Position numbers and translations under genes: made by a program. From positions 515 through 64,514 of the forward strand of contig MFFY01000061.1 of the NCBI GenBank assembly GCA_001778055.1: 64,000 nucleotides of DNA, given 5' to 3'. Shown piece by piece: positions 1,815 through 63,040 of this stretch. The stretch is from Candidatus Falkowbacteria bacterium RIFCSPLOWO2_12_FULL_45_13. Lineage in GTDB: Bacteria; Patescibacteriota; Patescibacteriia; Patescibacteriales; GWC2-42-12. Each line of letters begins with the position of its first letter. Positions within the stretch are counted from its first letter, which is position 1. Below the pieces are notes generated by a model that saw nothing but the letters and a program-made list of their open reading frames with translations, had not been told where the DNA came from and did not search any database.

Positions 1815-2350
1815 AATAAACTACCTCGCAGCAAGCTGACGAGGTATTAACCCTCGAAAAGTCTTGGCTGATTGGTATGAATTTGTTCGTACTTTAAACC
1901 TTAATTTTGAACATACTGCTTGATAGCCTCTTCGCTTGCTGCTTTACCAACCGTGTTAATGTAATAACCTTTCGTCCAAAATTCACCGCCCCAAAGCAAT
2001 TTTCTGATTTCCGGCTTTACGCGAAATATTTCCCGAGCCGTGATGCTTTTGACTATTTTCGCCAAATTGGTGGGGCTGATCATCGGAACAGACTGAATTA
2101 GAAAATGAACATGGTTTTGGTCAACGCCGATTTCAACAAAATGTATGTCAAACCTTTTTTCAATCTCCAAACAAATCTTCTTAATCTCTTGGTCTGCACC
2201 GGCCACATCCCTAAATACATTTCTGCGATATTTGGCCGGACAAACCAAATGATATAGTAGCAACGACGAATTATGTGATTTTTTTATGTGTTCGGACATG
2301 TTTTCATTCTAACGTACCCGCCCCTCGAGGCAAGCCTCGGGGAAATCTAT
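1815..2350 (-). mobile_element. IS200/IS605-family insertion sequence (tnpA only) with subterminal hairpins
   Basis: A Y1/HUH transposase ORF is flanked by imperfect hairpins: tacctcg...cgaggta at ~1823-1846 and cccctcgagg...cctcgggg at ~2321-2342. This is typical of IS200-like ends. The element abuts the recJ start. Confidence 0.6.
1901..2299 (-). CDS. tnpA: IS200/IS605 family transposase TnpA (Y1 HUH)
   Basis: 132 aa. HUH motif HVHFLIQ, conserved YxxK-type C-terminal region, and a size typical of IS200 TnpA. Confidence 0.85.
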   Translation of the reverse strand: MSEHIKKSHNSSLLLYHLVCPAKYRRNVFRDVAGADQEIKKICLEIEKRFDIHFVEIGVDQNHVHFLIQSVPMISPTNLAKIVKSITAREIFRVKPEIRKLLWGGEFWTKGYYINTVGKAASEEAIKQYVQN

Positions 2351-8337: not shown

Positions 8338-8453
8338 AATAAAAATTTAAAATGTAAAAATTAAAATGTAAAATTATTGTAAAAATTACTCCGTAAAAAA
8401 AATTAAAATTTTTTTCACTCCATAATTTTTAATTTTAATTTTTACATTTTAAA

Positions 8454-10049
8454 CTAAATTAGACTCCGGCCCGTCATCTCGGCCGACTTTTCCAAATTCA
8501 TCAGTTTCAAAATTGTCGGCGCCACATCGGATAATATGCCTTGCGGCTGAACCAGGCTCAAATCTCCGCCGGGCGCGTCTCCTAAAGACAGGCTCTTGCC
8601 TTCATAGTCTTGGCCAACAATTATGAACGGCACGGGGTTGGCCGAATGCTCTTTGTCTATCTGGCCGGTTTGCATATTAAACAAAACCTCGGCGTTGCCG
8701 TGATCGGCGGTAATAAATATCAAACCGGATTTGCTTAAGACAGATTTAACAATTCTGCCCAGGCACTTATCAACCGTTTCAACGGCTTTAGCCGTGGCTT
8801 TTAAATTACCGGTATGGCCGACCATATCGGCGTTGGCGTAATTAACCAAAATAAAGTCATAACTGTCTTGTTCAACCGCCTCAACAACTTTGTCGGTTAT
8901 TTTAACGGCCGACATCTCGGGTTGTTCGTCATAACTGGAAACCGCCGGTGATTGAATTAACACATGGTCTTCGTCGATAGACTTGCTTTCTCGGCCGCCG
9001 TTAAAAAAATAAGTCACATGAGCGTATTTTTCGGTTTCCGCGATCCTTAACTGTTTCAGGCCGGCTTTAGCTAAAATTTCACCGAAAGTATGCCTGATAA
9101 TTTCCTTGGGAAAAACCGTTTCCATGGGTAAACTAATTTCATATTCGGAAAAGCCAGCAAAAAATATTTTCAAGTATTTTTCCCGCTTAAATTTTTCAAA
9201 ACCGGGCAAGACAAAAGCCTTAGCCAGCTGGCGCGCCCGGTCCGGCCGGTAATTAAAAAATATTACCACGTCGCCGTCTTCAATCATGGCCACAGGTTTA
9301 TTATTTTTAACAATTACCGTGGGCATAAACTCTTCGTCGTAAATCTTCTTTTTATAGCTGGCTTCAACCGCTTTCCCGGCCGACTCGTGTTTCTCGCCCA
9401 GGCCTTGCGTTATGGCTTGATACGACTTAGCCGTTCTACCCCAATGATTATCGCGGTCCATGGCATAAAATCGGCCGTGGACCGTGGCAATTTTGCCGAC
9501 AGTCCCTTTAAGAGATCTTTCGATTTCTTGAATAAAATTAATTCCGGAATTGAACGGCGTGTCCCGGCCGTCTAAAATCGCGTGAATATAAAAATTTTTC
9601 ACCTTCTTCTCTTTGGCCATTTCAATCAAGGCTTGAAGATGCTCCAGCGAAGAATGAACCGCTCCGGAGGAAACCAAACCGATAAAATGCAACTTTGAAT
9701 TATGATTTTCCGCCTGTTCAATGGCCTTTAACAAAACTTTATTCTTGTAAAAACTGCGGTCGGCGATCATTTTGTTGATTCTGGGCAAGCTCTGATATAA
9801 AATCCTCCCCAGCCCTAAATTAAGATGGCCGACTTCGCTATTGCCCGATTCGCCCCAAGGCAAGCCCACGCCCTCGCCCGAAGCCACTAATGTGGCGGAC
9901 GGGTACTTGGTTATATAGTTATTGATATTCGGGGTATTGGCCTGGCTAATGGCGTTGCCGGAATAAGGAGTGGTAATGCCCCAGCCATCCAAGACGATCA
10001 GCACGACTGGTTTTGGGCGTAAATTTTGTTCTTTATTTACCATAGACAT
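8454..10049 (-). CDS. gpmI: 2,3-bisphosphoglycerate-independent phosphoglycerate mutase (iPGM), paralog 1
   Basis: 531 aa. VVLIVLDGWG, GNSEVGHLNLGLGR and ADMVGHTG motifs place it in the alkaline-phosphatase superfamily iPGM group. Confidence 0.9.
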   Translation of the reverse strand: MSMVNKEQNLRPKPVVLIVLDGWGITTPYSGNAISQANTPNINNYITKYPSATLVASGEGVGLPWGESGNSEVGHLNLGLGRILYQSLPRINKMIADRSFYKNKVLLKAIEQAENHNSKLHFIGLVSSGAVHSSLEHLQALIEMAKEKKVKNFYIHAILDGRDTPFNSGINFIQEIERSLKGTVGKIATVHGRFYAMDRDNHWGRTAKSYQAITQGLGEKHESAGKAVEASYKKKIYDEEFMPTVIVKNNKPVAMIEDGDVVIFFNYRPDRARQLAKAFVLPGFEKFKREKYLKIFFAGFSEYEISLPMETVFPKEIIRHTFGEILAKAGLKQLRIAETEKYAHVTYFFNGGRESKSIDEDHVLIQSPAVSSYDEQPEMSAVKITDKVVEAVEQDSYDFILVNYANADMVGHTGNLKATAKAVETVDKCLGRIVKSVLSKSGLIFITADHGNAEVLFNMQTGQIDKEHSANPVPFIIVGQDYEGKSLSLGDAPGGDLSLVQPQGILSDVAPTILKLMNLEKSAEMTGRSLI

Positions 10050-10073: not shown

Positions 10074-11714
10074 TTATTTTATTAGATTCTTGCCCGTCAT
10101 TTCTTTGGGTTTTTTAATATTTAACAACTCCAGTATGGTCGGCGCGATATCGCCTAAAACTCCGCCATTTCTTAATTTGACTTTATGGCCAAGGTTTTTG
10201 TTGATTAATACAAAGGGTACCAGATTAGTTGAATGCTCGGTATTGATTTCACCGGTTTTTAAATTAATCATCTCCTCGATATTGCCATGATCAGCCGTCG
10301 CTAAAACTGTGCCGCCGACGTTCAAATAAGCCTTAACAATTTCGCCCAGACACTTATCAACCCCATGGCAGCATTTTATCGCGGCGTCCAGATTGCCCGT
10401 GTGGCCGACCATGTCGGGCGCGGCAAAATTCAAAACCGTAAAGTCATATTTCCAGTCTAAACCCTTTTTCTGGCCAATATAACCCCCCTGCTCCCCTTTC
10501 AAAAGGGGGTGAGGGGGGGTTAAATTGTTGACCACTGCCTCGGTCAACTCCGCCGAACTCATCGTCGGCGTCTGATCATACGATCTGACGTTGGGCGAAG
10601 GCACAAGGCGCCGCCCTTCCCTCGCGATCGGATCGGCATAGCCGCCGTTAAAAAAATAAGTCACATGAGCGTATTTTTCCGATTCGGCGATATATAATTG
10701 CGACAAACCTTTTAGCGCCTGCGGCAAAGTCTGTTTTAAATCGACGCTGGGATAAGCGGTTAAAATACCGTCTAAGTCCGGTCCAAAATCAGTCATGGCC
10801 ACGAACAACAAATTTTTTAATACTTTTTTTCTTAAAAAAGAACCGGGATTTAATCTATCAAAATCTTTTTGCACGAAAACCTTGGCGAATTGCCTGGCCC
10901 GATCCGATCTTAAATTAAAAAAGATAACGCCGTCGCCGTTGCCGATCCGGGGTAAGGGCCGGCCATTTCTGGTGATCACATAGGGCTCAATAAATTCGTC
11001 GCTTTCGCCGCGGTTATAACTTTCCATGATCGCGGCTTCCGGGCTGGCGGCTTTCCGGCCCAAGCCGCTCGTTAAAGCATCATAAGCTTTTTCGGTTCTC
11101 GACCAGGTTTTTTTTCTGTCCATGGCGTAATATCGGCCGACGACGGAAGCGATGGCTTCGCCGTTTTTAAAAACTTTTTGGATATCTTCGACCAATTTCA
11201 AAGAGGCATACCTAGGCGAATCCCGGCCGTCGGTGAATAAATGCAAATAAACTTCCTTGACTTTAGTTATTTTAACCAAAGACAGCAGAGCCAGCAAATG
11301 GTCCGGGTCGCTATGCGCGCTCATGCCATTGGAGATCATGCCCATTAGATGAAGCTTGGATTTATTCTTTTTGACCTGGCGGATCGCCTCGATAAAACCG
11401 GCATTTTTAAAAAAAGTCCCGTTATTAACGCTTTTAGAAATTTTAACTACGTCTTGCTCGACAATTCTGCCGGCGCCAATATTCATATGCCCGGCTTCAG
11501 AATTACCCGATTGGCTCGGCGGCAGGCCCACGGCCTTGCCGGAAGCATTGATTAAAGTATTGGGAAATTTTTTAATCAAGCCGTCCATAACCGCGGTATT
11601 GGCCAAGGTGATGGCATTACCCTGGCTCGGTTCAGCCATGCCCCAGCCGTCTAGGATGACCAGAATCATGGGTAAAACATTTTTAGCTGGCTTATTTAAC
11701 TTTTCTGGTTTCAT
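10074..11714 (-). CDS. gpmI: 2,3-bisphosphoglycerate-independent phosphoglycerate mutase (iPGM), paralog 2 (tandem duplicate, carries an in-frame palindromic insertion)
   Basis: 546 aa. ILVILDGWG, GNSEAGHMNIGAGR and PDMVGHTG motifs. The segment NNLTPPHPLLKGEQGGYIGQKKGLDWK has no counterpart in paralog 1 and is encoded by the palindromic element at 10483-10520. Confidence 0.9.
   Translation of the reverse strand: MKPEKLNKPAKNVLPMILVILDGWGMAEPSQGNAITLANTAVMDGLIKKFPNTLINASGKAVGLPPSQSGNSEAGHMNIGAGRIVEQDVVKISKSVNNGTFFKNAGFIEAIRQVKKNKSKLHLMGMISNGMSAHSDPDHLLALLSLVKITKVKEVYLHLFTDGRDSPRYASLKLVEDIQKVFKNGEAIASVVGRYYAMDRKKTWSRTEKAYDALTSGLGRKAASPEAAIMESYNRGESDEFIEPYVITRNGRPLPRIGNGDGVIFFNLRSDRARQFAKVFVQKDFDRLNPGSFLRKKVLKNLLFVAMTDFGPDLDGILTAYPSVDLKQTLPQALKGLSQLYIAESEKYAHVTYFFNGGYADPIAREGRRLVPSPNVRSYDQTPTMSSAELTEAVVNNLTPPHPLLKGEQGGYIGQKKGLDWKYDFTVLNFAAPDMVGHTGNLDAAIKCCHGVDKCLGEIVKAYLNVGGTVLATADHGNIEEMINLKTGEINTEHSTNLVPFVLINKNLGHKVKLRNGGVLGDIAPTILELLNIKKPKEMTGKNLIK
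10483..10520. repeat. In-frame palindromic element (C5-TGACAAGG-AGGG family) inside the gpmI paralog 2 coding sequence
   Basis: cccccctgctcccctttcaaaagggggtgagggggggt is a near-palindrome. Related copies occur in eno, gap and rarA and at two intergenic sites. Confidence 0.7.
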
Positions 11715-11732
11715 ATATTAAATACACAAAAT

Positions 11733-11925
11733 GACAGTCTTCCTGTCATTGCGAGCCCCGACGCTCTGGGTGGGGCGAAGCAATCTCACGTATGACTATA
11801 CCTCACTAAATCTCGTAATAATTTTATTATGATTATTCTTTACCGTTCGAGATTGCCCGCCCGACTGAACGTCGTTCGGGCGGGCTTCGTCGCTGGCGCT
11901 CCTCGCAATGACAGAAACTTTACAT
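11733..11925. repeat. MITE-like structured repeat, copy B (between eno and gpmI)
   Basis: Termini gtcattgcgag...ctcgcaatgac, internal gcaatctcacg...cg.gagattgc, and the perfect hairpin gcccgcccga...cgggcgggc. Confidence 0.7.
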
Positions 11926-11934
11926 TTTTAACTG

Positions 11935-13251
11935 TCATTTTAATTTTTGATTTTTGCATTTTAAATTTTCTTCAATCTCCATCAGCCTGTTATATTTCGC
12001 CAGCCTTTCTCCCCGCGACAGCGACCCGGCCTTAATGTAATCAGCCCCGACCGCCACGGCTAAATCAGCGATAAAGTCATCCGTAGTTTCGCCCGAGCGA
12101 TGCGAAACAATAATTTTATAATTATGCTTCTTGGCCAGTTTTACGCAGTCAACCGTTTCCGACAGGGTCCCGACCTGATTGGGTTTTATTAAAATAGCGT
12201 TAGCGGCGTTTTCTTTCAAGCCTCGCCTCAAGCGCTCCGGATTGGTGACGAACAAATCATCGCCGACCAGCATTACGTCCCGGCCAAGCTCTTTATTTAA
12301 TTTTTGCCAGCCGGCCCAATCGTCTTCAGCTAAACCGTCTTCAAGGTAAATTATCGGATACTTCCTAAACCATTCGTAATATAAGCCGGCTAAAGTAGCC
12401 GCGGTGTAACTGGCGCGATCCAGCTTAAAAACATACCTGCCGTTTCTCTGATTATAAAGTTGAGATGAGCCTACATCAATGCCTAAGGCTAAATCTGCCC
12501 CGGGTTTATAACCAGCTTTAATTGCGGCCGCCATAATTAATTCAATCGCCTGGATGCTGGAACTGATATCCGGCGCGTAGCCGCCTTCATTGCCCACATC
12601 CGTGTCATAGCCAGCTCTTTTTAAAACATCCCCTAAAGCATGAAAAATCTCCGCGCCCATTCTAACTTGTTCGGCAAAACTTCTTCTCCCCCCCCTGACA
12701 AGGAGGGCTGGGGGTGTTAAATAAGCCAGGGGAATTATCATAAATTCCTGAAAATCCAGGTTGGTATCGGCGTGCTTGCCGCCGTTAAAAATATTAAAAC
12801 ATGGAACAGGTAATTGGAAATTGGAAATTGGAAATTGGAAATTATTAGAGATATATTCATATAACTCCAGACCAGAAGCCAAGGCGCCGGCGCGGGCGCA
12901 AGCGAGCGACACGGGCAGGATCGCATTAGCGCCTAATTTACTTTTATTTTTTGTACCATCTAATTTTATCATGATATCATCAATCTCCGCCTGCTTGGTT
13001 ACTCCAGCTCCGATTAGCTTAGGCGCGATTTTGCTTTCAATATTTTTAATGGCATGCAAAACCCCCAAACCGCCGTATCTTTTAGCATCATTGTCCCGCA
13101 GTTCCACGGCTTCATGCGCGCCCGTAGACGCGCCCGCAGGCGCGCTGGCTTTTGCTTTAACGCCATTATCCAATAAAACCGTGGCTTCCACAGTGGGATT
13201 GCCGCGCGAATCTAAAATCTCACGAGTCGTTATTTTTTTTATTTTAGGCAT
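11935..13251 (-). CDS. eno: Enolase (phosphopyruvate hydratase)
   Basis: 438 aa. TTREILDSRGNPTVEA, SAPAGASTGAHEAVELRD, SHRSGETTD and the full enolase domain order. It also contains an in-frame 12-aa insertion and a 7-bp tandem repeat. Confidence 0.95.
   Translation of the reverse strand: MPKIKKITTREILDSRGNPTVEATVLLDNGVKAKASAPAGASTGAHEAVELRDNDAKRYGGLGVLHAIKNIESKIAPKLIGAGVTKQAEIDDIMIKLDGTKNKSKLGANAILPVSLACARAGALASGLELYEYISNNFQFPISNFQLPVPCFNIFNGGKHADTNLDFQEFMIIPLAYLTPPALLVRGGRRSFAEQVRMGAEIFHALGDVLKRAGYDTDVGNEGGYAPDISSSIQAIELIMAAAIKAGYKPGADLALGIDVGSSQLYNQRNGRYVFKLDRASYTAATLAGLYYEWFRKYPIIYLEDGLAEDDWAGWQKLNKELGRDVMLVGDDLFVTNPERLRRGLKENAANAILIKPNQVGTLSETVDCVKLAKKHNYKIIVSHRSGETTDDFIADLAVAVGADYIKAGSLSRGERLAKYNRLMEIEENLKCKNQKLK
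12686..12716. repeat. In-frame palindromic element (same family as 10483-10520) inside eno
   Basis: ctcccccccctgacaaggagggctgggggtg. It encodes the extra YLTPPALLVRGGRR relative to the canonical EFMIQPVGAKT...IRMG loop of enolase. Confidence 0.7.
12808..12844. repeat. Coding microsatellite: about 4.5 copies of a 7-bp unit (GGAAATT / AATTGGA) inside eno
   Basis: ggtaattggaaattggaaattggaaattggaaatta. It encodes NNFQFPISNFQ in the variable loop preceding the conserved LPVP. Confidence 0.85.
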
Positions 13252-17095: not shown

Positions 17096-17281
17096 AAATT
17101 CCTTAATGCCGCCTTGGCTAAATATTTATTCGCGGCCTACGCGCATATAACGCATGGATTATGCTAGAGCCTGTCTCAAAAATAGCTTTTAGTCATTTTT
17201 GAGATAGACTCTAGTTAATGATTTTAATTTTGCATTTTATTGATTCGTAATATTTGCAGCTGATTCGTAGATTTGCGGGGC

Positions 17282-18043
17282 CTACATCCACTTCGCCGTG
17301 GACAAGACTAATAATAAGCTGATTGATCCCAAAATTAAATACATTTTTACCTTGGCCGCGTCCAATTTTAGAAGTAAATGATTTTTAACCAGGCCGATAA
17401 CCACATAATAGCAAATCGCCAAGCTCAAGCCGGAAATATTATAATTAAACGGCAAAAAGGAAATTGACCAAAATAATTCAACCAAAATCAGGCAACTGAT
17501 TAAAATATAAGGCAAACTGGGCATCAGTTCTATCTTGTTGGCCCAAATTATCTGATAAACCAGCAAACTTGTCAAGCTTATCATAATGAGCACCAGCCAA
17601 GAAATCGGCAAGTTCAAAAAGGACGCCAGGCCGTAAACCGTGGCCGCCAGCAAAAAAAAGGTCAGCCAGTTGATATATGAGGAGATATTTTCTATGCTAA
17701 AAACTTCATAGGCCAAAGGGTTAAGCAAATAATAATAAACATACCGTAAATATAAATATAAAAAAACCAAATTAAAAAAATACAGTAGTTGAATAATAAG
17801 CTTAAAACTTAAAAAAACCGAATAGCTCATCACCGCCACGGACATAACGGCCGGCAAGATTAAGTAATTCCACCAGCGCTTATCAATTTCGCTGGTTTGG
17901 CTAAATTGCCAAACCGTGAAAAAAATCAGTAAATTTACCAAAACTGCGGCTACGTAAATCAGTTTCGGAGACAAATAATACATTTCTTCAAGTAAAAAAA
18001 CCAACGCCGGAATTATTAAGGGCAATAAACGATTAAGCTTCAT
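17282..18043 (-). CDS. Hypothetical polytopic membrane protein
   Basis: 253 aa, highly hydrophobic with many predicted TM helices. No recognisable family. Confidence 0.5.
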   Translation of the reverse strand: MKLNRLLPLIIPALVFLLEEMYYLSPKLIYVAAVLVNLLIFFTVWQFSQTSEIDKRWWNYLILPAVMSVAVMSYSVFLSFKLIIQLLYFFNLVFLYLYLRYVYYYLLNPLAYEVFSIENISSYINWLTFFLLAATVYGLASFLNLPISWLVLIMISLTSLLVYQIIWANKIELMPSLPYILISCLILVELFWSISFLPFNYNISGLSLAICYYVVIGLVKNHLLLKLDAAKVKMYLILGSISLLLVLSTAKWM

Positions 18044-18463: not shown

Positions 18464-18629
18464 ATAGAATAATTTAATAGTACTTACGCGCTCTCCAATA
18501 TTATCTAAAGTTAATAAAAATTGTTAATTTATGCCAACCAACTGTAATTACCCGCAAATCTACAAATCAGCTACGAATACTACCAATGCTATTCGTGATA
18601 TTCGTAGCTGATTTGTAGATTTGCGGGAG

Positions 18630-18971
18630 CTATATACCAAATTTTTTAGCTTCCATTTCCAGCCAATCGTTTATCGCTTCGTCCCATTTATAGGCTTTTA
18701 ATTTGTGGCTTTTTTCCTTCGGGCTGTAAACATATTCCACCACGGTCTCGGCGCCAAGACGGTTGGAATATTTGGTTTTTTTATCAATGACCGCCGGCTT
18801 GGTGATAAATTCTAATTTCATCCTGCCCAACGGGCCTTTAAAAATAATATATTCAACCTCAACGCCGCCTTGTTCTTCAAGGTATCGTTTTTCGCACTCT
18901 TCCACCTCATAATTATCTTTTATATTGCCGACGATTTGTTGCCATTTTTCTGACGTCATAAAATAAAGCAT
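18630..18971 (-). CDS. Hypothetical protein
   Basis: 113 aa ORF, no recognisable motifs. Confidence 0.45.
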   Translation of the reverse strand: MLYFMTSEKWQQIVGNIKDNYEVEECEKRYLEEQGGVEVEYIIFKGPLGRMKLEFITKPAVIDKKTKYSNRLGAETVVEYVYSPKEKSHKLKAYKWDEAINDWLEMEAKKFGI

Positions 18972-29501: not shown

Positions 29502-29588
29502 AATCAGTCATGTTTTTGCAAATTCATAATTGCCTAACAAATCAACGAATTAACTACGAATATCACGAATAATATAATTGAAAAATAA

Positions 29589-30668
29589 TTATTTTAGTAT
29601 TTGTATATTCGTTGTAAAATTCGTTGATTCGTTAGCCTGGTTGATTTGTGGGTAGACATTCTTTAAAAAGCTTCTGATCGGCACAGGCACCGAGCAGCCC
29701 AGGGCGCAAACCGAAGTATCGGCCAGATTGTCCAATAAATTATTAAACAAGACCCAGTCGGTTTTTCCCGCCAGAAAAACCTCGCCCAATCTAAAAGTTC
29801 CTTCGCGGCAGGGCGCGCATTGCCCGCAAGATTCGCTCATAAAAAAATTAAGCCAAGACTTAATGATTTTTTTATAATTATTCTTTGTGATGCTGTAAAT
29901 AGTGATGGAACCCGCGCCCTGAACCGATCTTTTTAACTGTCGGCTATTTAAAACTTCGCCGGCCGCGCCGCCGCCACATTGGACAAAAAAAGGAAATTTA
30001 GGATAATTTTTTGTCGCTTTTAATATTTTCTCAATGCTAAAACTTTCCGGCAAATCATAAACTCCCTCCCGCGGGCAATCGCCGGTCAGGCTGTAAAATC
30101 TTTTATTTTCATATCGATTGGCTTCAACCAGGCTGACATTATAAAAAGTTTCAACGTTATTCACTAAGGTGGGGCAGCCCCACAGGCCGGCGGTGGTGGG
30201 AAACGGCGGTTTTAACCTAGGCTCGACCCTTCGACCTTCAATGGCGTTTAAAATCGCGCTTTCCTCGCCGCCGATATAACCGGCGTTCGGCGGCTTAACG
30301 AAGATTTCAATAACAGAAGATTTCAACAGAACGGTTAATTTTTTTTTCAATTTTTTATTATAACCGTAGTTTAAAAATAAATAACCTTTTACAACTCCCT
30401 TGTCCGCCGAGGCTTTAGCGTAGGCGGATAAAAAATCAACGGCGATTTTCATGCCGTTAATCACCTGATCCGCGTGATGCTCTAAAATATAATCATCTTT
30501 GATCACGCCCGGTTCGCCTTCAGCCGCGTTACAGACCACATAGCATTTTTTTTCGCCTGCTTTATCCGCCAGAGCCTGAGCGACGGCAGACCACTTTTTC
30601 GCCACCGGAAAGCAGGCGCCACCGCGCCCGACCAGACCGGCTAGTTTTATTTTTTCCAGGATATCCAT
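29589..30668 (-). CDS. NuoF-like NADH-binding FMN flavoprotein subunit (hydrogenase HydB/HndC-like, short form)
   Basis: 359 aa. GLVGRGGACFPVAKKW, YVVCNAAEGEPG, GYIGGEESAILNAIEGRRVEPRLKPPFP, PTLVNNVETF, ESCGQCAPCREG. It lacks the N-terminal NuoE-like and C-terminal ferredoxin extensions of full HydB. Confidence 0.8.
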   Translation of the reverse strand: MDILEKIKLAGLVGRGGACFPVAKKWSAVAQALADKAGEKKCYVVCNAAEGEPGVIKDDYILEHHADQVINGMKIAVDFLSAYAKASADKGVVKGYLFLNYGYNKKLKKKLTVLLKSSVIEIFVKPPNAGYIGGEESAILNAIEGRRVEPRLKPPFPTTAGLWGCPTLVNNVETFYNVSLVEANRYENKRFYSLTGDCPREGVYDLPESFSIEKILKATKNYPKFPFFVQCGGGAAGEVLNSRQLKRSVQGAGSITIYSITKNNYKKIIKSWLNFFMSESCGQCAPCREGTFRLGEVFLAGKTDWVLFNNLLDNLADTSVCALGCSVPVPIRSFLKNVYPQINQANESTNFTTNIQILK

Positions 30669-30906: not shown

Positions 30907-32034
30907 TTACAACAACTTCTTTTTTCCAATATACTCGCATAAATCCGCCAATCGGCAGGAATAGCCCCACTCGTTATCATACCAAGCGATTATTTTCAAA
31001 AGATCGCCGTCAATAACCTTGGTTAAAGGCAAATCAACGATGGCGCTGTTTGCGTTGCCGATAAAATCGGAAGAAACCAGCGGTTCTTCCGTTACCGCCA
31101 CGTAACCTTTATAATCGCCGGCCGCGGCTTTTTTTATCGCTTGATTAACCGCCTCGGCGGTAACCGATTTTTCCGTAAGATACACGATATCGCACAAGGA
31201 CACCACCGGCGTGGGCAGGCGCAAGGCCAGGCCATCAAATTTTCCGGCCAGCTCCGGAATAGTTTTAGCCGTGGCTTTGGCCGCGCCGGTCGTGGTCGGC
31301 ACGATATTTAGGCCGGCCGCGCGAGCTCGGCGCAAATCCTTATGCGGCCCGTCCACTAAATTTTGACCAGCCGTATAAGAATGCGCGGTAGACATAATGG
31401 CCTTTTTAACGCCGAAATTGTCTCTAACTATTTTCGTTACCGGAGCCAAACAATTGGTGGTGCAGGAAGCCATGGAAATAATTTTGTCATCTTTAGTTAA
31501 ATCTTTTTCATTAACCGACAAAACAATAGTTTTAATAGCCTCTCCCCCTGACAAGAGGGAGCTGGAGGGGGTTTTTTCTTTAGCGGGCTTGCCCGCCGTA
31601 GCTTTTTTATCCGCCAAAGCCTTGGCGTCGGCGGAAGCGGAGGCGGGCGCCGACAAAATCACTTTTGTAGCACCGGCTTCAAGATGCTGTCCGGCGCCAA
31701 GCGCGTCCAGAAATCTGCCGGTGCATTCCAAAACAATATCCACCTTCAGTTTACCCCAGGGCAATCTGGCCGGCTCTTTTTCCTTGAGCACCCGATATTT
31801 TTTACCGCCAACCATCAAATTATCGGCTTCTGCCGCAACTTTTTTTTCATAAGTTCCATAACAGCTATCGTGCTGTAAGAGATGCGCCAGCGTCTTGGTG
31901 TCCGTCAAATCATTTATTGCCGCCACATTTATCCCCTTTTTATTTAACAAGGCTTTAAAAGCGGCCCGGCCGATCCGGCCGAAGCCATTGATGGCGATGT
32001 TCACCCCGTTAGATATTGGCATATATTTTTTCAT
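30907..32034 (-). CDS. gap: Glyceraldehyde-3-phosphate dehydrogenase (type I) with an internal insertion of about 30 aa
   Basis: 375 aa. INGFGRIGR, active site ASCTTNCLAPV, WYDNEWGYS. The Ala/Lys-rich insertion ...ASADAKALADKKATAGKPAKEKTPSSSLLSGGEAI is encoded partly by the palindrome at 31541-31572. Confidence 0.95.
   Translation of the reverse strand: MKKYMPISNGVNIAINGFGRIGRAAFKALLNKKGINVAAINDLTDTKTLAHLLQHDSCYGTYEKKVAAEADNLMVGGKKYRVLKEKEPARLPWGKLKVDIVLECTGRFLDALGAGQHLEAGATKVILSAPASASADAKALADKKATAGKPAKEKTPSSSLLSGGEAIKTIVLSVNEKDLTKDDKIISMASCTTNCLAPVTKIVRDNFGVKKAIMSTAHSYTAGQNLVDGPHKDLRRARAAGLNIVPTTTGAAKATAKTIPELAGKFDGLALRLPTPVVSLCDIVYLTEKSVTAEAVNQAIKKAAAGDYKGYVAVTEEPLVSSDFIGNANSAIVDLPLTKVIDGDLLKIIAWYDNEWGYSCRLADLCEYIGKKKLL
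31541..31572. repeat. In-frame palindromic element (C5-TGACAAG-AGGG family) inside gap
   Basis: tctccccctgacaagagggagctggagggggt. Nearly identical core to the eno copy. Confidence 0.7.
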
Positions 32035-33162: not shown

Positions 33163-33326
33163 TTGTCATTGCGATGATGCAGCTCCAGTTTCTTAAACTG
33201 GGGCTGGAGACGAAGCAATCTCACGAACATCTAAGCACAAAGTACTAGGCAAAAGGAATTTTTAGTACAAGCAAGATATGCGTGAGATTGCTTCCCCCGG
33301 CTTAAGGCCGGGGTCGCAATGACAAT
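33163..33326. repeat. MITE-like structured repeat, copy C (between tsf and the PSP1-domain gene)
   Basis: Termini gtcattgcga...tcgcaatgaca and internal gaagcaatctcacg...cgtgagattgcttc. The central segment differs from copies A and B. Confidence 0.65.
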
Positions 33327-41311: not shown

Positions 41312-41390
41312 AACGCAAATCTCAAATCTATAATTTAAAACTCAAAACTATTATCAAATTTAATGATTTGAACTACAGTTTTGAGTTTTT

Positions 41391-41418
41391 CCGCCGGAGG
41401 CGGATCCGCCTCCGGCGG
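41391..41418. repeat. Perfect 28-bp palindrome (ccgccggaggcggatccgcctccggcgg) nested in a longer AT-rich inverted repeat (aaaactcaaaact / agttttgagtttt)
   Basis: Intercistronic, between a hypothetical gene and the ftsW/rodA-family gene. Contains a BamHI-like ggatcc core. Confidence 0.8.
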
Positions 41419-41479
41419 AGACATTTGAGTTTTGAGATACTAAAACGAGATATTGAAATAGCTTTTCTATAACACTATA

Positions 41480-42445: not shown

Positions 42446-42737
42446 GCTATTATTTTAACATAATTTGCCCCCTTGATAAAGGGGGCCGGGGGCAAAAATA
42501 CGAGCGCCCAGGCAACCCCTTGAATAACTGTTGAGATTTAACCTCCACATGTAGGTTAAATCTCTTATTTTTTTCACCCATCTCCCTTGCCGTTTCCGCT
42601 TTTTTTTGCTAAAATTTAAGTATAAAAATGAGCTAATTTAGATGTTTTTATTTTAAAATATTTAGGCTAAAATTAAATAAAAAAATACACAAATTATACA
42701 CGCCAATCAATTCGTCGTATTCGCACATAATTTGTAG

Positions 42738-53005: not shown

Positions 53006-53278
53006 ACCTGCTGACTTATTATGCGCGTTGTTCTTAATTCATTGGCCCTACAAATCTACGAATCCACTAAAAATATACAAATATTTGTAAATTCGTTATT
53101 TTATTCGTTGATTCGTTAGGGTTTTGATTATTATAATATAACATTTTTTCCGGTAATGGCAAACTTTTAATTTAAACGGTCTTTTTTTATTTTAAAAATT
53201 TCGTCGCCAAGCAAAAAACAGGCTTTAAAATTTTAAACCTGTCTTTTACTTCTTACTTCCTACTTCTTACTTCTAACT

Positions 53279-62944: not shown

Positions 62945-63040
62945 ATGTTTTTATTTTACCATATTTTACCCCCTTGATAAAGGGGCAAACCCTGGCCTTA
63001 ATCAAGCGCCAGGGCTAGAGCCGTCAGAGCCAACCAATCA

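Follow-up and report, generated by a model that had tools for sequence, protein, structure and literature searches.

A repeat-derived in-frame insert in the enolase of a Candidatus Falkowbacteria genome

Introduction

Selfish DNA lying in frame in housekeeping genes has so far been treated as a peculiarity of Rickettsia. The Rickettsia palindromic elements (RPEs) are about 100-150 bp long and form ten Rickettsia-specific families, each with a conserved peptide (Ogata et al. 2000 Science 290:347; Ogata et al. 2002 Genome Res 12:808; summarized in PMC10969869). Here, a case from the Candidate Phyla Radiation (CPR) is described. The stretch analyzed, referred to below as the window, comprises 64,000 nt of contig MFFY01000061.1 (positions 515 to 64,514; assembly GCA_001778055.1) of Candidatus Falkowbacteria bacterium RIFCSPLOWO2_12_FULL_45_13, and the subject is a run of 12 additional codons in its enolase gene, related to a GC-rich hairpin repeat designated here the C/G element.

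Repetitive extragenic palindromic sequences (REPs) are extragenic by definition and carry a GTAG or CGTC head (PMC3733652). [quoted passage not shown] Coding palindromes made of long perfect inverted repeats are known from the mitochondria of Nematomorpha (PMC6649704).

Results and Discussion

The enolase gene and its insert

The gene and the features that define the insert are the following.

11935..13251, minus strand: enolase gene, an intact ORF of 438 aa that hosts the insert (ORF listing, Pfam, PDB matches)
12688..12723, minus strand: in-frame insertion of 36 nt, TATTTAACACCCCCAGCCCTCCTTGTCAGGGGGGGG, encoding YLTPPALLVRGG, residues 177-188 (PDB gap, MAFFT, codon comparison)
12686..12716, no strand assigned: GC-rich core, on the coding strand C-run / AG / CCCTCC-TTGTCA-GGGGGG, a weak hairpin (sequence, folding)

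Both Pfam domains of enolase were recognized in the protein (Enolase_N, E = 1.9e-55; Enolase_C, E = 8.9e-97), solved PDB enolases matched it at E ~1e-128 (HMMER), and the enolase fold was found in its model. In a 69-sequence alignment, where it is 70-85% identical to its relatives, residues H160, E169, E222, D259, E304, D331, K356, H384-R385-S386 and K407 were invariant. The catalytic and metal-binding residues of an enolase are accordingly in place as E169, E222, K356, H384, K407, D259, E304 and D331, which we take to be, in yeast numbering, Glu168, Glu211, Lys345, His373, Lys396, Asp246, Glu295 and Asp320.

A 12-aa in-frame insertion in this enolase had been proposed in a preliminary description made from the sequence alone, and this was borne out. 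In each of three HMMER alignments, with the enolases of B. subtilis (4a3r), Synechococcus (4rop) and Coxiella (3tqp), a single 12-residue gap was placed between EFMIIPL and GRRSFAEQVRMG. MAFFT alignment with 119 close homologs identified the extra residues as 177-188, YLTPPALLVRGG (low-occupancy columns 285-315), between EFMIIP and FAEQVRMG. The inserted codons are TAT TTA ACA CCC CCA GCC CTC CTT GTC AGG GGG GGG, the junctions read ...CCCCTGGCT on one side and AGAAGAAGT on the other, and the peptide stretch spanning the insert is IIPLAYLTPPALLVR. At the codon level, the closest relative whose DNA was compared (L001) has an empty site at this position.

Within the GC-rich core at 12686-12716 lie 29 of the 36 inserted bases. 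No second match to this exact 31-mer was found in the window at up to three mismatches, and relatives of the element were detected there only with run- or loop-based patterns, not by exact-match search. An intein, an intron and translational bypass were considered for the insert and dropped, since its 12 codons are in frame, stop-free and without any of the required motifs.

The analysis confirmed that the enolase insert is real and repeat-derived. As to its history, the 12 residues are likely to be translated from a small DNA repeat with dispersed copies, of which a truncated one landed in frame in the gene.

Further copies of the element in the window

Four further copies of the C/G type were located; apart from the GAPDH copy, these are looser relatives with a C-run, a loop and a G-run.

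31531..31638, minus strand: composite insert inside the GAPDH gene (30907-32034), coding for about 32 aa (1gd1 alignment, sequence)
10481..10521, minus strand: nested palindrome AACCCCCCC-TCA-[CCCCCTTTTGAAAGGGG]-AGCA-GGGGGGTT, peptide LTPPHPLLKGEQGG, in frame in the iPGM gene (10074-11714) (folding, 1ejj alignment)
42465..42495, plus strand: copy outside long ORFs, GCCCCC TTGATAAA GGGGGCC GGGGGC (pattern search)
62966..62990, plus strand: copy outside long ORFs, CCCC(C)TTGATAAAGGGG hairpin (pattern search)

Three of the five copies therefore lie inside ORFs (enolase, iPGM and GAPDH), and three glycolytic enzyme genes within 22 kb hold inserts. Both copies outside long ORFs carry the CCCCCTTGATAAAGGGGG hairpin.

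The core CYYCTTGTCAGGGGG of the enolase insert recurs at 31544-31558 inside the GAPDH gene, with 0.00 matches expected (100 shuffles). The composite insert there consists of three consecutive hairpins from different repeat families, namely TCCGCC...GGCGGA, GCGGGCAAGCCCGC and the sister copy of the enolase element (31541-31575), and opposite about 36 residues of the protein (133-168), just 4 are aligned in G. stearothermophilus GAPDH (1gd1). On the antisense strand, the C/G hairpin of GAPDH is followed by a T-run and has a terminator-like look.

The two copies are read in different frames, CTT GTC AGG GGG (LVRG) in enolase and TTG TCA GGG GGA (LSGG) in GAPDH. The conserved entity is consequently the DNA element and not a protein motif. 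A related copy in the enolase of another genome (L017) yields the peptide TPSNSPLSGGG.

In iPGM, 24 residues (398-421) align to 4 residues of PDB entry 1ejj, and the copy folds at -16.3 kcal/mol (z = -3.7). The in-frame insert of about 20 aa, LTPPHPLLKGEQGGYIGQKKGLDW, was placed at 10452-10523; the tandem iPGM paralogue at 8454-10049 has no insert.

Family architecture and distribution

Metagenome contigs were scanned with the pattern CCCCCN{2,8}CCYYCTTGTCAGGGGG, which yielded at least 120 stretches on contigs of 31-66% GC. Of 89 copies examined, 86 were preceded by AA, a prefix outside the search pattern. The consensus is AACCCCC-linker-[CCCCCC TTGTCA GGGGGG]. In many copies, a spacer of 10-15 nt is followed by an inverted second hairpin, CCTCCCC TGAYAA GGGGAGG, and then by YTGG-GAGGGGTT, so that full copies gain a second hairpin and GGGGGTT.

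Judged by these sequences, the full element is an outer stem AACCCCC/GGGGGTT that encloses a single hairpin in copies of about 40 nt and a pair of hairpins in copies of about 75-90 nt. The enolase copy would comprise hairpin 1 together with the 5' outer half. In another genome (L002), a two-hairpin copy was found in frame at the same enolase loop, as LNPPTPLLKGGAMNTPLRKGGGGGS. Plasmids carry full copies as well, in Moraxella osloensis in the interval from narG to narH and in Pseudanabaena between two annotated genes.

Two further proteins were compared with solved structures. MetRS carries an in-frame copy at the same site in two organisms, with a gap of about 10 aa relative to 2csx; as two different organisms have the element at the same position, this suggests that MetRS is a second protein with an insertion hotspot. 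In a CysRS of proteobacterial type that closely matches its E. coli counterpart (E = 5e-160), a 19-aa gap relative to 1li5 spans a full two-hairpin copy. In-frame cases in PheS, a TsaC-like protein and a methyltransferase were judged by eye only. A GlmS case (L145) was discarded as ambiguous, E. coli GlmS having HPLHGG there naturally and the net difference being about 5 residues. The two MetRS cases are on contigs L135 (GC 0.44) and L159 (GC 0.35), with the C/G element in antisense, within GWDG[TTPLTRGAGGLD]FWP and GWNG[ESESPPDKGGEGG]FWP, respectively.

In the C-first orientation, 73-81 of 86 copies were stop-free in each of the three frames (85-94%), compared with 24-64 of 86 in the reverse orientation, and the encoded peptides are Pro/Gly-rich and loop-prone. 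Longest-ORF calls on the metagenome contigs placed 24 copies in sense, 9 in antisense and 56 outside ORFs, the calls on GC-rich contigs being unreliable. On some GC-rich contigs (L098, L106, L107, L111), a larger palindrome, about 170 nt long, is built around the two-hairpin element, and its outer arms, AGTACCTTGTAAC...GGTACT, are conserved. A longer, MITE-like element may thus exist, with the two-hairpin element as its core.

In Rfam scans covering the window together with 15 element-bearing loci, nothing but tRNAs and one SAH riboswitch was found, and the C/G element is thus not a curated RNA family. No match to it was found in a phage collection. A literature search returned no account of such elements in CPR, nor the core sequence.

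Comparison with described systems

The RPEs, as summarized in PMC10969869, resemble the C/G element in being dispersed palindromic repeats that occur both between genes and in frame in unrelated housekeeping genes, in adding a peptide at fold-compatible positions of the host protein and in belonging to a reduced-genome lineage. In-frame dispersal in unrelated genes was found for the C/G element in enolase, iPGM and GAPDH of the window and in MetRS and CysRS of the metagenome contigs. The consensus and the iPGM copy (z = -3.7) are clear nested palindromes; the corresponding value for the enolase copy is z = -0.2.

Several differences were evident. The C/G element measures 33-90 nt, with nested C5-8/G5-8 hairpins, and the enolase insert 36 nt, below the length of RPEs. 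Its frame varies with the host, in place of one peptide per family. It occurs in Patescibacteria and other bacteria, as opposed to Rickettsia alone, the two systems having been compared by description. Rickettsia genomes are AT-rich, whereas the C/G element consists of GC-rich runs.

With REPs and their clusters, bacterial interspersed mosaic elements, the C/G element shares an imperfect, GC-rich palindrome 20-40 nt in length, its presence in many copies and the occasional clustering of these into composites. It differs in its start, AAC-C5 in 86 of 89 copies with no GTAG or CGTC in the consensus, and in its location, three of the five window copies being inside ORFs. No REP-associated tyrosine transposase (RAYT) gene flanked by C/G repeats was found in the window or in the other loci examined.

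The MITEs mentioned above are likewise small non-autonomous repeats with possible in-frame fusions. As regards terminal inverted repeats, full C/G copies end in AACCCC...GGGGTT, and the enolase copy has no 3' end; neither a target-site duplication nor a related autonomous parent insertion sequence (IS) was detected for the C/G element. The mitochondrial palindromes of Nematomorpha are similar as short hairpin-forming elements in frame in conserved protein genes, and differ as an organellar system of unrelated sequences with long perfect inverted repeats.

The one-or-two-hairpin architecture of the C/G element also resembles that of the fungal mitochondrial double-hairpin elements, which, with the yeast GC clusters, belong to the GC-rich hairpin elements of mitochondrial genomes. 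Since each of the RPE, REP/RAYT and MITE classes fails on some point, the C/G element was filed as a new family. By analogy, it would represent protein-coding palindromic selfish repeats in a new lineage, with the RPEs as their closest analogue.

Insertion hotspots across related enolases

The loop that holds the window insert, designated H1, was compared among the 120 nearest homologs. All of the 25 closest enolases (82-87.5% identity outside variable loops) have the canonical loop of 5-6 residues, P-xxxx-S. The comparison with close relatives proposed in the preliminary description thus came out in favor of an insertion, the relatives without the element having the short loop. Among distant bacterial enolases, 43 of 65 loci fit the search pattern, and in 42 of these the spacing from P to G was 11-13 residues, the 43rd being a pattern artefact. 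From the short loop in its nearest relatives, the insertion in the window enolase would be recent.

About 36 of the 120 homologs (about 30%) carry an insert at H1. The preliminary description had considered tolerance of the insertion notable; with inserts in the same loop at this frequency, it is not exceptional. The inserts belong to at least four unrelated kinds.

C/G hairpin type, with PPLxKGG-like peptides
ACGAAT-repeat type, with TNxARIxTN...ESN peptides
CCCTCTCC...GGAGAGGG type, with PSPSPA...SQERG peptides
SRPRGSASSQTLGVC type

The second kind (L003, L207) has its source in a repeat family that is also dispersed in the window.

2362-2486, 17229-17287, 18551-18635, 29533-29633 and 53082-53120: ACGAAT-type hairpins

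Differences at H1 can be followed in individual homologs. In P0003, flanks like those of the window enolase (PLA...RR-S/E-FAEQ) surround an ACGAAT-type insert. P0072 and P0120 are 96.2% identical outside the hotspots and carry unrelated DNA at H1, two C/G hairpins versus a duplicated ACGAAT unit.

A second hotspot, H2, lies just before barrel strand 1 and holds inserts in 34 of the 120 homologs, including the closest relative (P0002/L001), where H2 contains LLNPPHPPLLKG and H1 is empty. No other internal position of enolase has inserts in more than 10 sequences. In the window enolase, H2 is occupied by a tandem repeat.

12812..12843, minus strand: heptamer tandem repeat AATTGGA x 4.6 at H2, encoding NFQFPISNFQ (TRF score 64, 100% matches)

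Peptides of the LQITNYKL type at H2 of related enolases derive from similar heptamer arrays, and in L011 the site is filled by a palindrome similar to TCCGCC...GGCGGA.

On this sequence comparison, H1 and H2 appear to be hotspots in the lineage at which repeat families were inserted or replaced one another. The presence of different families at both sites points to strong selective filtering. To our knowledge, repeated overwriting of one loop by several families has not been described for RPEs.

Position of the insert in the enolase structure

AlphaFold2, run with the 69-sequence alignment, gave an intact enolase model (pTM 0.88), for which Foldseek returned the solved enolases 4a3r, 3tqp and 6bfy at TM 0.88-0.90. 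The model contains a strand at 169-174, a loop at 175-191 and a helix from 192, and insert residues 178-187 have a pLDDT below 50. The modelling suggested in the preliminary description thus placed the insert in a low-confidence loop, outside the modelled barrel strands and helices.

The enolase barrel has the topology ββαα(βα)6, with the second strand antiparallel to the others; lid L2 lies just before barrel strand 2, and helix α5, after strand 2, belongs to the monomer-monomer interface (PMC4667285). The earlier placement of the insert near the active-site lid holds in sequence, lid L2 and the catalytic Glu169 being just upstream, but was not upheld in structure. The insert follows the antiparallel strand 2 (169-174), and the loop after that strand is expected to point away from the active site, at the barrel end opposite the catalytic face. 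With the insert at this turn, the catalytic machinery would be untouched, and the enzyme most likely still works.

H1 and H2 are probably neighbours at the same barrel end. In octameric enolases, the dimer-dimer interface has its centre at the site of H2 (Tyr135-Asn140 in the S. aureus enzyme; PMC4667285), and CPR enolases with H2 inserts would therefore be unlikely to form that octamer.

This location near subunit contacts is what lends some weight to a functional explanation, under which the insert is a lineage-specific, selected extension of enolase (a binding or moonlighting surface, or an oligomeric change) and its resemblance to repeats is secondary. With α5 after the loop in one interface and H2 at the centre of the other (PMC4667285), assembly could change, and the ORF has been kept intact. 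Such selection is nevertheless unlikely: the loop inserts of relatives are unrelated in sequence and length, even at 96% identity, the nearest 25 relatives have none, this DNA is also present outside long ORFs and, read in different frames, in other genes, and model confidence at the insert is below 50.

Origin of the insert

A number of observations weigh against the derivation of the insert from a dispersed repeat that landed in frame. The enolase copy is without the 3' half of the element and folds at -6.8 kcal/mol, no better than dinucleotide shuffles (z = -0.2). Of the earlier proposal that the insertion is encoded by a palindromic element, the GC-rich hairpin repeat accordingly stands, while the palindrome is a property of the family and not of the enolase copy. 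C/G copies are few, the 64 kb of the window holding just five. An empty H1 site is not on record for any near-identical strain, so that the insertion event is deduced from relatives at most 87.5% identical, and the position of the loop relative to the active site is taken from published topology.

Missing signs of mobilization form the second group of such observations. No direct repeat was found as a target-site duplication; the flanks NAA...TTN' are reverse-complementary and extend the stem. No parent element or dedicated transposase was found for the C/G family. Pfam scans of the 56 long ORFs of the window revealed one transposase.

1901-2308, minus strand: IS200/IS605-family Y1 (HUH) TnpA of about 132 aa (NF033573, 122.7 bits)

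The repeats flanking tnpA are of the ACGAAT family, not C/G elements, and in a tblastn search with this protein no TnpA was found at any of about 200 loci.

The same absence of a target-site duplication and a transposase would fit a local origin of the hairpin, whether through slippage, through template switching at a hairpin or through convergent drift towards GC richness. Tandem expansion at the hotspot is seen in relatives (TTTGTCAAGGGGGCAGAA x 4 in L008, a duplicated ACGAAT unit in L207), and C/G runs fold through composition alone. A local origin is still quite unlikely, as the 15-nt core is identical in pattern to the GAPDH copy and to at least 120 metagenome stretches that share a flanking architecture not required by the search, and AAC-C5-linker-CCYYCTTGTCA-G5 is very unlikely to have formed independently.

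That the insert stems from faulty assembly or sequencing, for instance from a chimeric join at a repeat, is very improbable. Assemblers can be misled by short repeats, and the window comes from a metagenome-assembled genome (MAG). However, the insert is exactly 36 nt long, in frame and stop-free, and dozens of independent assemblies have analogous inserts at the same codon position. Two MAGs of Candidatus Falkowbacteria recovered from the Rifle aquifer encode an identical enolase with the insert (OGF23753.1, partial; OGF29860.1, from RIFCSPLOWO2_12_FULL_45_13), and it is seen on 7 contigs, which also argues against an artefact. Apart from this source population, no enolase cluster above 90% identity was found in the protein collection.

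That the enolase is decaying or inactivated, with the insert as one symptom, is equally hard to credit. Genome reduction in CPR and the many repeats of the window speak for it, but the ORF is full-length, its catalytic and metal-binding residues are invariant, it retains 70-85% identity to relatives, and it is the only enolase seen in the conserved PGK-enolase-iPGM cluster.

For a repeat-derived insert, the following course may be envisaged. Copies would spread by a copy-and-paste or recombination process, and those in genes would survive only if their length is a multiple of three, the frame is stop-free and the added peptide comes to lie in a loop at the surface that is permissive to it. Speculatively, existing palindromes might attract further insertions.

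A wider proposition can be put forward tentatively, and it is rather doubtful in its entirety. A hitherto undescribed, cross-phylum family of nested C5/G5 hairpins of 40-90 nt, in one orientation stop-free in almost every copy whichever of the three frames is read, would colonize surface loops of essential enzymes (enolase, iPGM, GAPDH, MetRS, CysRS), as RPEs do but on a much broader scale. In Patescibacteria, it and several other REP-like families would repeatedly insert into and overwrite each other at one codon of one loop, at least one of the other families lying beside an IS200/IS605 single-strand transposase, which would imply targeted insertion at hairpins and not filtering alone.

The two-site hotspot, the turnover of families, the three glycolytic genes and the wide distribution of the element take the case beyond a single oddity. 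In dozens of related genomes, inserts have repeatedly landed or been retained in one enolase loop, and they provide a natural map of insertion tolerance in an essential TIM-barrel enzyme. The occurrence of several families at one site, with different inserts in near-identical hosts, makes it a tractable case for distinguishing targeting from filtering. Annotators and phylogeneticists should be aware that protein "insertions" in CPR can be repeat DNA.

Other repeat families and gene order in the window

The window TnpA scored 21.6 bits against the RAYT model (cut-off 80) and is not a RAYT; its best PDB match was ISDra2 TnpA. Upstream of tnpA, hairpins at 2340-2490 include a GC hairpin, CCCCGAGGCTTGCCTCGAGGGG, and a long ACGAAT-family inverted repeat. 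The recJ ORF starts 8 nt past the tnpA stop, and no right-end hairpin is therefore visible.

One ACGAAT hairpin, CCCGCAAATCTACAAATCAGCTACGAAT / ATTCGTAGCTGATTTGTAGATTTGCGGG, has 37-nt arms with 92% complementarity and a 3-nt loop, and hairpins of this type contain GTAG motifs. The ACGAAT family is plausibly mobilized by a single-strand, hairpin-recognizing transposase: its hairpins adjoin TnpA and fill H1 in several relatives, so that at least one of the competing families would be transposase-mobilized.

Two further families stood out against expectation.

30403-30428, 31610-31635 and 41390-41419: TCCGCC...GGCGGA palindromes (3 versus 0.13 expected)
2587-2739, 11745-11912 and 33165-33323: inverted pairs of TCGCAATGAC (6 matches versus 0.11 expected)

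Two of the TCCGCC...GGCGGA palindromes form part of genes and are translated in frame, as SAYAKASAD and SADAKALAD. The one at 30403-30428 lies within a NuoF-like ORF (29589-30668), whose Complex1_51K match covers 173 residues versus 150 positions in the profile, suggesting that this protein, too, has an insert. Each TCGCAATGAC pair bounds a MITE-like unit of about 150-170 nt, one of which occupies most of the iPGM-enolase spacer.

At least 14 separate period-7 tandem arrays were present, with a different unit in each array and 4-11 copies.

Starts at 8342, 8423, 12812, 14551, 24048, 24220, 24367, 26825, 27521, 28480, 41301, 49303, 53246 and 54165: period-7 arrays

Among the arrays checked, several are intergenic or located at the ends of genes; the perfect AATTGGA x 4.6 array is translated inside enolase.

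The iPGM paralogues at 8454-10049 and 10074-11714 are in tandem. The order PGK-(SIMPL/pilin)-enolase-iPGM-iPGM is conserved in related CPR contigs (L001-L004), with acetate kinase next where the contig extends.

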